A stretch of DNA of 64,000 nt from Candidatus Aminicenantes bacterium (lineage in GTDB: Bacteria; Acidobacteriota; Aminicenantia; Aminicenantales; Saccharicenantaceae). A model generated the notes under the pieces. The model was not told the DNA's origin. It ran no database searches and worked only from the letters and a program-made list of their open reading frames with translations. Below, piece by piece: positions 19,834-21,060 of the stretch. The position numbers and the translations under genes are program-made. Position 1 is the first letter of the stretch; every line of letters begins with the position of its first letter. The stretch is from the NCBI GenBank assembly GCA_963719985.1, contig CAVRDU010000001.1:32023-96022 (forward strand), read 5' to 3'.

Positions 19834-19905
19834 CTAGAAAAGGACGAGGAGCGCCGCGACCAGGACGACGACCGCCCACAGCACGACCCGCATCACCGTC
19901 TTCAT
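19834..19905 (-). CDS. Candidate 23-aa single-pass membrane micropeptide [23 protein letters not shown] (not in ORF track)
   Basis: ATG overlaps the RHH gene stop (ATGA); almost all codons end in G/C; basic N-terminus then 17 hydrophobic residues; TAG at 19836-19834. Confidence 0.55.
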
Positions 19906-20072
19906 TTCCGGTCCTCCTGTCCCCGGCGGAGGCGGCCGGCCTTGCGGACCGCCTCCTTGAGGACGTATTCCATCTGGGCGTTGATGCTGCGCAGCTCGTC
20001 GGCCGCCCACTTTTCCAGGGCGTCGTAGAGCGCCTCGTCAAGCCTCAGAAGGAACTTTTTCTTATCGCTCAC
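19902..20072 (-). CDS. Arc/ribbon-helix-helix DNA-binding protein, 56 aa (not in ORF track)
   Basis: GTG start; [56 protein letters not shown]: beta strand FLLRL, helix, RSxN turn, helix. Confidence 0.88.
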
Positions 20073-20087: not shown

Positions 20088-20966
20088 TCAGGTATGGAGG
20101 GTCCCCGTGTTGACGATGGGATGCATCTCGGCCTCCGAGACGAGGGCCACGAGGAGGTTGTTGACCATGGCCGCCTTCCTCTCCTCGTCGAGCCGGACGA
20201 CGCCCTGGGCCTCGAGGCTCTTGAGGGCCATCTCGACCATGCCGATGGCGCCGTCGACGATCTGGCGCCGGGCGGCGATGATGGCCTCGGCCTGCTGGCG
20301 CCGGAGCATGGCCTGGGCGATCTCCGGGGCGTAGGCCAGATGGGACAGGCGGGCCTCGACGACGTGGAGGCCGGCGACGTCGAGCCGGTTCTGGACCTGG
20401 CTCTTGAGCTTCAAGGCGATCTCGTCCGGGTTGGCCCGGAGGGATTCCGTCTCCTGGTCGTGGGCGTCGTAGGGGTAGTGGGTGGCCAGCTGGCGAATGG
20501 CCGTCTCGCTCTGGATGGCCACGAAGTGCTGATAGCTCTCGACGTTGAACAGGGCCTTGGCCGAGTCGACGACGTGCCAGACGACGACGGCGGCGATCTC
20601 GATGGGGTTGCCCAGGGCGTCGTTGACCTTGAGCGTCTCGCTGTTGAAGTTGGAGATGCGCAGGGTCACCTTCTTCTTGACGGCGAAGGGATTGGTCCAG
20701 AAGAAGCCGGCCGTCCGGGCCGAGCCGACGTACTTGCCGAGGAAGGTGAAGACCTTGGACTCGTTCGGGTGGATGAGGAAGAAGCCGCCGAAGGTCATGA
20801 AGGCGAGGATGGACGCGCAAACGGCGACGATCATCCCCGCCGTCGCCCCGGCCTGGTCCACGTGGGTGACGAAGTGGCGGCCGCTGAAGAAGAACACGAC
20901 CAGATCGACGACGACCATGATCCAGCCGTTGAGGCCGAAGATCTGTTTCTCCTGGATGTCTTTCAT
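20088..20966 (-). CDS. SPFH (band 7) domain membrane protein
   Basis: Two N-terminal TM helices, GFFWTNPF, LKVNDALGNPIEIAAVVVW, QSETAIRQLATHYPYD, RLSHLAYAPEIAQAMLRRQQA; AAGGAGG RBS. Confidence 0.9.
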   Translation of the reverse strand: MKDIQEKQIFGLNGWIMVVVDLVVFFFSGRHFVTHVDQAGATAGMIVAVCASILAFMTFGGFFLIHPNESKVFTFLGKYVGSARTAGFFWTNPFAVKKKVTLRISNFNSETLKVNDALGNPIEIAAVVVWHVVDSAKALFNVESYQHFVAIQSETAIRQLATHYPYDAHDQETESLRANPDEIALKLKSQVQNRLDVAGLHVVEARLSHLAYAPEIAQAMLRRQQAEAIIAARRQIVDGAIGMVEMALKSLEAQGVVRLDEERKAAMVNNLLVALVSEAEMHPIVNTGTLHT

Positions 20967-20983
20967 TTGAACCTCCTTGAAAT

Positions 20984-21020
20984 TAATATCACTATAATAT
21001 CATTACGATATTAATGTCAA
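20984..21020 (-). promoter_or_regulatory. Promoter with three 8-bp operator boxes at 11-bp period
   Basis: Minus strand reads TTGACA-t-TAATATCG-taa-TGATATTA-tag-TGATATTA; -35 TTGACA 21020-21015, -10 TATAGT 20996-20991 (18-nt spacer); strongly AT-rich island in a GC-rich window. Confidence 0.75.
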
Positions 21021-21060
21021 GCGGTTTTTTTCGGCCGTTCCGGGCCCGGGCGGCCGCGGC

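Follow-up and report, generated by a model that had tools for sequence, protein, structure and literature searches.

The described systems that come closest to the one analysed here are the repressors Arc of phage P22, MetJ of E. coli, and CopG and omega (pSM19035). The Arc operator overlaps the promoter, and its subsites, with centres ~11 bp from one another, are occupied cooperatively on the same face of the DNA. MetJ binds 8-bp palindromic boxes, two to five per array, cooperatively and with one dimer per box; the boxes follow one another directly, with a period of 8 bp, and MetJ depends on S-adenosylmethionine as corepressor. CopG and omega are small ribbon-helix-helix (RHH) dimers that polymerise on repeated subsites over the -35 and -10 elements and repress their own operons. 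Omega recognises 7-bp heptads, and CopG a pseudo-symmetric element of 13 bp.

We analysed three 8-bp boxes upstream of an operon that encodes an SPFH membrane protein and a 56-aa RHH protein. The operon lies in a 64,000-nt stretch of DNA from a Candidatus Aminicenantes bacterium, the whole of which is referred to as the window. Like P22 Arc (PF03869, Arc/MetJ superfamily), the RHH protein is ~53–56 aa long; it can be aligned with Arc from end to end, has R10 at the position of Arc R13 and keeps the R-S-x-N segment. As in Arc-type operators, the boxes are repeated short subsites on one helix face and lie over a predicted promoter. In contrast to Arc at Pant, which has two subsites, the array in the window consists of three boxes and those of relatives of two to five, and each box is itself a palindrome of the TGATATCA type. 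In place of Arc N11 there is Leu or Pro, and in place of Arc Q9 a variable residue (K6 in the 56-aa protein). The gene is chromosomal, proposed to be autoregulatory and tied to an SPFH membrane protein, whereas Arc belongs to a phage immunity region. The likeness to MetJ lies in the 8-bp palindromic boxes and their number per array; unlike met boxes, those of the window and its relatives do not abut and recur at an 11-bp period with 3-bp spacers, and the 56-aa protein has no ligand domain. The RHH protein would resemble CopG and omega as a small dimer on repeated subsites over a promoter, but the subsite length and phasing of those two differ, and they serve plasmid copy number or partition and not an SPFH gene.

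A second point of comparison is the SPFH–NfeD operons (QmcA-YbbJ, PH1511-PH1510), in which a fixed partner is kept over wide phylogenetic distance (Hinderhofer et al. 2009, PMC2636767). The operon in the window likewise pairs an SPFH gene with a fixed partner; unlike in those operons, the partner is a DNA-binding RHH protein and not NfeD. No NfeD-family gene was found in the operon: the SPFH gene is followed by the RHH gene and a 23-aa ORF, and then by a methyltransferase gene. That survey of prokaryotic SPFH operons makes no mention of ribbon, CopG, repressor or DNA-binding, and a full-text literature search brought up no description of an RHH partner of SPFH proteins or of a TGATATCA operator. 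The mechanism appears to be that of a standard Arc/MetJ/CopG-type autorepressor, of which this instance appears to be undescribed. On the sequence evidence, we put at roughly 80% the probability that the three boxes serve the 56-aa Arc-like RHH protein as the operator through which it regulates its own operon.

Promoter, boxes and operon in the window

The array was read on the minus strand. From 21020 to 20984 the DNA runs TTGACA-T-TAATATCG-TAA-TGATATTA-TAG-TGATATTA, followed by AGGAGG and the ATG of the SPFH gene. The wider interval 21031-20964 (minus strand) is AAAAAAA CCGC TTGACA T TAATATCG TAA TGATATTA TAG TGATATTA ATTTCA AGGAGG TTCAA ATG. The features, in the direction of transcription, are as follows.

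21025..21031, minus strand: A7 tract directly 5' of the -35 hexamer, presumed UP-element-like
21015..21020, minus strand: -35 hexamer TTGACA (promoter scan; in 21/21 same-genus orthologues, TTG-like in most distant loci)
21014, minus strand: single T between the -35 hexamer and box 1
21006..21013, minus strand: putative operator box 1, TAATATCG (6/8 matches to TGATATCA; ATAT core invariant in the genus)
20995..21002, minus strand: putative operator box 2 (central), TGATATTA (7/8 matches to TGATATCA)
20991..20996, minus strand: predicted -10 hexamer TATAGT, 18-nt spacer (promoter scan, prediction only)
20984..20991, minus strand: putative operator box 3, TGATATTA (7/8 matches to TGATATCA)
20972..20977, minus strand: Shine-Dalgarno sequence AGGAGG of the SPFH gene (GGAGG invariant in the genus alignment)
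20088..20966, minus strand: SPFH/Band_7 gene, 292 aa, first in the operon (PF01145, E 2.5e-19)
19902..20072, minus strand: Arc-like RHH gene, 56 aa, proposed repressor (PF03869 Arc; family-profile match to P22 Arc)
19834..19905, minus strand: 23-aa hydrophobic ORF, possible third operon gene (ORF list)

The minus-strand reading confirmed the three 8-bp boxes described in an earlier note on this DNA, with 3-bp spacers (TAA and TAG) and an 11-bp period measured start-to-start. The range given there, 20984-21020, covers the array but also takes in the -35 hexamer; the boxes proper occupy 20984-21013. A promoter scan of 1.6 kb detected one sigma-70-type site, TTGACA-18-TATAGT, with 11/12 matches. 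The last two bases of box 2 are the start of the predicted -10, and box 3 begins on the final base of the -10 and ends at the expected start of transcription. Since the predicted -10 lies at 20996-20991, the boxes fill the spacer, overlap the -10 and extend to the expected start. Their placement between the -35 and the start, which the earlier note had proposed, is thus borne out against the predicted promoter, with the overlap of the -10 in addition. This near-consensus promoter with its upstream A-tract is predicted to drive SPFH, RHH and possibly a 23-aa membrane peptide.

Most same-genus orthologues have an A-rich run at the position of the A7 tract (consensus AAAAAACCnCTTGACA). In relatives, the A-tract comes after a canonical terminator of the upstream gene; the hairpin 5' of the A-tract in the window is followed by A's, not T's. 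The outer boxes had also been described as arms of a 9-bp inverted repeat. The repeat is real and longer than that: its arms (20976-20990 and 21007-21021) measure 15 nt and are 93% complementary. Immediately 5' of the ribosome-binding site, TTTCAAG mirrors the CTTGACA of the -35 region, and the promoter-operator therefore forms an imperfect palindrome of ~46 bp centred on box 2. The extension of the inverted repeat is partly kept in same-genus relatives and may be a coincidence.

The genome measures 3.4 Mb at 67% GC, and the promoter region is AT-rich. The pattern TRATATYR-N3-TRATATYR-N3-TRATATYR had zero expected matches in shuffles of the window. As promoters in GC-rich genomes are AT-rich, we added shuffles of the AT-rich core only: the box triple appeared in none of 200,000 shuffles of the local 35-nt core, and ~0.1% of the AT-core shuffles equalled the real sequence in 11-nt self-similarity, scored without reference to the motif (p ~0.001). 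Across the whole 3.4-Mb assembly, this was the only site with two or three boxes in 11-bp phase. It scored 20/24 against three TGATATCA boxes, and the next-best site scored 17. No further operator sites that could form a regulon were found in the assembly, so the regulon would consist of the SPFH operon alone.

The RHH ORF begins 15 nucleotides past the SPFH stop, and the start of the 23-aa ORF overlaps the RHH stop (ATGA). The 23-aa ORF is possibly a third gene of the operon, overlooked by gene callers; comparable small hydrophobic ORFs were seen 3' of the RHH gene in L019 and L020, two loci from other families of the order. Metatranscriptome contigs of relatives, which are without the 5' end, cross the SPFH/RHH junction, and this fits co-transcription of the two genes. 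DNA runs with the locus came from marine-sediment, estuary and soil metagenomes.

The 56-aa protein matched the Pfam family PF03869 Arc over residues 1-48 of 56 with 23.1 bits (cut-off 20.4); its RHH_5 score was just under the cut-off of that family. A profile built from 30 RHH family members matched P22 Arc (1arq, 1par) at E 2e-4, with residues 1-48 on Arc 4-51, and single-chain Arc at 1.2e-8; 1par is the entry of the Arc-operator complex. In 30 diverse members, K5, R10, W22, R28, S29, N31, E35 and L38 were invariant. The alignment places R10 on Arc R13 and the R-S-x-N segment at the start of Arc helix B. An AlphaFold2 model of the monomer (pLDDT 78) had one helix, at 13-44, and no strand; a monomer model is unable to show a dimer-only fold. 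A Foldseek search of this model against the PDB gave no match. Because the model has no strand and Foldseek found no match, the RHH fold is assigned from sequence. An NCBIfam search gave only far-sub-threshold matches, to HflK/HflC and TprA.

Conservation of the array

We searched 41 related genomes, in which same-genus orthologues had 82-88% protein identity, and aligned 21 upstream regions. TTGACA followed by three boxes at an 11-bp period was present in all 21 same-genus orthologues. The -35 hexamer had a pairwise identity of 1.0. The 30-nt box block, in which the ATAT/TAT cores were invariant, reached 0.83, and the 40 nt 5' of the -35 reached 0.48. Box 2 was the best conserved of the boxes (0.88). 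The DNA 5' of the -35 was essentially unalignable across the genus, and the terminator hairpins differed by genome. Four-fold degenerate sites in the gene reached 0.80, and the value for the box block is barely above this. As GC3 codon bias keeps silent sites similar, the genus footprint alone is only moderately informative.

Three loci from other families of the order (L019, L020 and L023, with 54-67% SPFH identity) also possessed three boxes at an 11-bp period and an RHH gene 3' of SPFH. The arrays were CAATATCA-TAG-TGATATCA-CTT-TGATATAC in L019, CAATATCA-TTG-TGATATCA-TTC-TCATATCA in L020 and TGATATAT-AAA-TGATATCA-TAT-TGATATTT in L023. The L023 array lies ~11 bp, or about one period, farther from TTGACA, and the array thus behaves like an element in its own right, distinct from the promoter hexamers. 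The RHH protein of L023 (L023:2404-2826) is 140 aa long and carries a C-terminal extension with two CxxC pairs (CPKCQ...CGQCG); this zinc-ribbon-like addition could be a sensor or an interaction domain.

A scan by SPFH alignment, with one genome per species, yielded at least 80 loci with 49-66% identity. They came from the Acidobacteriota, Ignavibacteria/Bacteroidota, Bacillota, Gammaproteobacteria, Verrucomicrobiota, Planctomycetota, Chloroflexota, Actinomycetota, Myxococcota, Deinococcota and others, more than 10 phyla in all. Among the matches listed, an RHH homologue was present 3' of SPFH in 76/80, and an exact TGATATCA was found within -120..-1 of the SPFH start in 64/80. In an unbiased 8-mer count, the same word was the most widespread upstream of SPFH (64/80 among the matches listed). 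The 295 kb of listed loci held 74 exact copies, of which 69 fell in the -120..-1 zone; the background elsewhere in these loci was 1.1 per 100 kb. The palindrome that the earlier note had guessed from three imperfect copies, TGATATCA, is thus the exact cross-phylum consensus. Phylogenetic footprinting bore out the motif in orthologous promoters at every depth: 21/21 within the genus, the other families of the order, and an exact copy in 64/80 among the matches listed.

The phasing was conserved along with the word. The match to the palindrome was 5.4/8 at -11 from the central box and 5.7/8 at +11, with 59% and 66% of the listed loci, respectively, reaching at least 6; other offsets gave ~2/8 (range 0.1-3.7), with small peaks at -22 and +22. 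The consensus reads GATATCA-AnG-TGATATCA-TTn-TGATATCA, and a TTGACA-like hexamer lies three bases 5' of box 1. In this consensus, the central box plus the T that follows reads TGaTATCAT, an extended -10, 17 nt past the TTGACA-like -35. The -35 of the window is two bases nearer the boxes than in the consensus architecture, and its best -10 is therefore TATAGT at the box 2/3 junction.

The number of boxes varied by lineage at a constant period: two in a gammaproteobacterial group, three in most lineages and five in L060. In the gammaproteobacterial loci L056, L057, L070, L079, L082, L084, L090, L091, L097 and L105, the beta-strand of the RHH protein reads YPLR, as against FLLR in most lineages. 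These loci have two boxes, often TGATATCT, and the -35 (TTGCA) takes the place of box 1. Covariation between beta-strand variants (FLLR, FPLR, YPLR) and box sequence was considered and rejected. There is no specificity switch, because every beta-strand class shares the consensus TGATATCA and only the number of boxes differs. In L036, L043, L045, L047, L048, L053 and L054 (Ignavibacteria/Bacteroidota) as well as L074, L078, L086 and L065, the RHH gene is located 520-1150 bp past SPFH, and in those lineages one or more further genes must therefore lie between RHH and SPFH.

Identity of the box-binding protein

We compared loci in which one member of the SPFH–RHH pair is missing. SPFH genes without an RHH gene (L052, L077, L112 from Listeria and L113 from Enterococcus) had no boxes; this comparison rests on small numbers (4-5 loci). 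Conversely, a viral contig from IMG/VR (L164:1429-1608) encodes a stand-alone RHH homologue with ~47% identity and no SPFH gene, and there the array TGATTTTA-AAA-TGATATTA-TAT-TCATATCA places three phased boxes directly 5' of the RHH ribosome-binding site. The L164 homologue is divergent from another gene. In a Bacillota class, L123 is a natural SPFH deletion that has kept the boxes and an intact RHH gene. In L123, L130 and L137, a C-terminal remnant of ~28-31 aa is what is left of SPFH (fused to the first codons in L123), and RHH is intact; in L130 and L137, the RHH gene is without boxes after deletions that took the promoter region. A search for stand-alone RHH genes in this class, with 46 matches fetched, gave 41 that adjoin a full or contig-truncated SPFH, four that adjoin a short SPFH remnant and two without an SPFH match. 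L034 is an exception, with boxes ~1 kb upstream, ahead of an extra gene. In L063 (Thermus), where an RHH gene is present, no boxes were found in the 1 kb examined. The association between boxes and RHH gene holds in both directions, in small numbers.

The neighbouring genes of the pair were not constant. The pair is preceded by an FtsX permease gene in the window; it is flanked by DUF2892 and purD in B. thuringiensis, and by an ABC permease gene and a helicase gene in Deinococcus. In the loci compared, no DNA-binding protein other than RHH was seen to accompany the boxes. The earlier note had proposed the downstream RHH protein as the binder. From the co-occurrence of boxes and RHH gene, the conservation of the motif and the homology to Arc, we infer that it does bind them.

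An unlinked transcription factor, for example a global regulator, could bind the boxes instead, with the RHH protein having another target or role. Short AT-rich palindromes suit many protein families, and the identity of the binder is a matter of inference here. We nevertheless consider an unlinked factor improbable: the motif and its phasing accompany the SPFH–RHH pair across more than 10 phyla while the compared neighbours differ, and the boxes are gone where RHH is absent and present before a stand-alone RHH homologue. A single multi-box site in the genome does not fit a global regulon either.

We regard it as very unlikely that the conserved element is only a strong promoter moving with the cassette, composed of an extended -10 (TGnTATnAT), an AT-rich spacer and an UP-like A-tract, with no repressor involved. 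The central box plus T does read TGaTATCAT at 17 nt past a TTGACA-like hexamer, the region is AT-rich in a 67% GC genome, and part of the conservation of the central box could be due to promoter function. However, a promoter has no need for the same palindrome to be repeated at exactly -11 and +11, and the C that completes the palindrome is conserved although TATAAT would serve a promoter better. The shift of the L023 array by one period relative to TTGACA, the variation from two to five boxes between lineages and the lack of the motif in RHH-less SPFH orthologues also argue against a bare promoter.

The B. thuringiensis orthologue (L111, NZ_CP151870.1) is labelled 'toxin-antitoxin system HicB family antitoxin' (WP_001085171.1), a PGAP name, and that of Deinococcus sp. 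NW-56 (L114) 'hypothetical protein' (WP_104992565.1). The former name raises the possibility of a toxin-antitoxin-like or abortive-infection module, in which an RHH antitoxin binds the boxes with, or is titrated by, an SPFH toxin (conditional cooperativity). A small RHH autorepressor with a larger partner and a phased operator resembles type II loci of this kind, and the cassette is present on some plasmids and viral contigs. We judge such a module highly improbable. Pfam searches of the operon proteins for HicA and HicB gave no match, no other toxin domain was found, and PADLOC returned no defence-system match for either the SPFH or the RHH protein. The 56-aa protein consists of the RHH region only, without the HicB N-terminal domain, and its neighbour is an SPFH/Band_7 protein, unlike in HicAB. 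Moreover, SPFH needs no neutralisation, since close orthologues (L052, L077 and those of Listeria and Enterococcus) exist without an RHH gene. The HicB antitoxin label is probably wrong, because L111 and L114 both carry the three-box operator.

Least credible is an RNA-level element, in which the inverted repeat that spans the region (15 nt, 93% complementary) would form a hairpin in the 5' leader and control translation or stability. Most of the repeat is upstream of the predicted start site, and the 8-bp palindromes and 11-bp phase are what is conserved across phyla and not long-range pairing. This explanation was dropped, an Rfam scan of the region having given only a sub-threshold miRNA match.

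Proposed autorepression and its significance

With the RHH protein as repressor of its own operon, each box would bind one RHH dimer through a two-stranded beta-ribbon inserted in the major groove. The ribbon would bear the invariant residues K5 and R10, of which R10 aligns to Arc R13, and the symmetric pair of arginines would recognise the G at box position 2 and the C at position 7. A centre-to-centre spacing of 11 bp would place neighbouring dimers on one helix face, as in the Arc tetramer-operator complex, and the three dimers would therefore bind cooperatively. An occupied array across the spacer, the -10 and the start site would shut out RNA polymerase; where the central box coincides with the extended -10, as in the consensus, sigma factor would face competition from the repressor for these bases. 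As the repressor is made from the transcript that it controls, the circuit would be one of negative feedback, and it may hold SPFH output steady from a strong promoter.

A more tentative proposal, attractive but in our view rather unlikely as a whole, is that the SPFH assembly controls its RHH repressor. At its cytoplasmic face, the scaffold would sequester or free the 56-aa protein, like PspA with PspF, and the state of the membrane or scaffold would set transcription via the TGATATCA array. As part of the same joint proposal, the cassette would be an ancient or widely transferred self-contained circuit. If true, control by the scaffold would explain why a protein free of a ligand domain is locked to one membrane partner and one operator across more than 10 phyla.

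To our knowledge, it is rare for a regulator and its DNA word to be retained jointly across bacterial phyla; the textbook examples are HrcA-CIRCE and the NrdR boxes. In the present case, a single 8-bp palindrome with a single phasing rule is found with the same gene pair in more than 10 phyla, so that regulator and operator are conserved together. The analysis also corrects a recurring public annotation of the RHH gene, as 'HicB family antitoxin' or 'hypothetical protein'. For an uncharacterised SPFH subfamily, it provides a handle in the form of a defined promoter/operator, a repressor with one proposed target, and tractable carriers, among them the Bacillus cereus group and Deinococcus.
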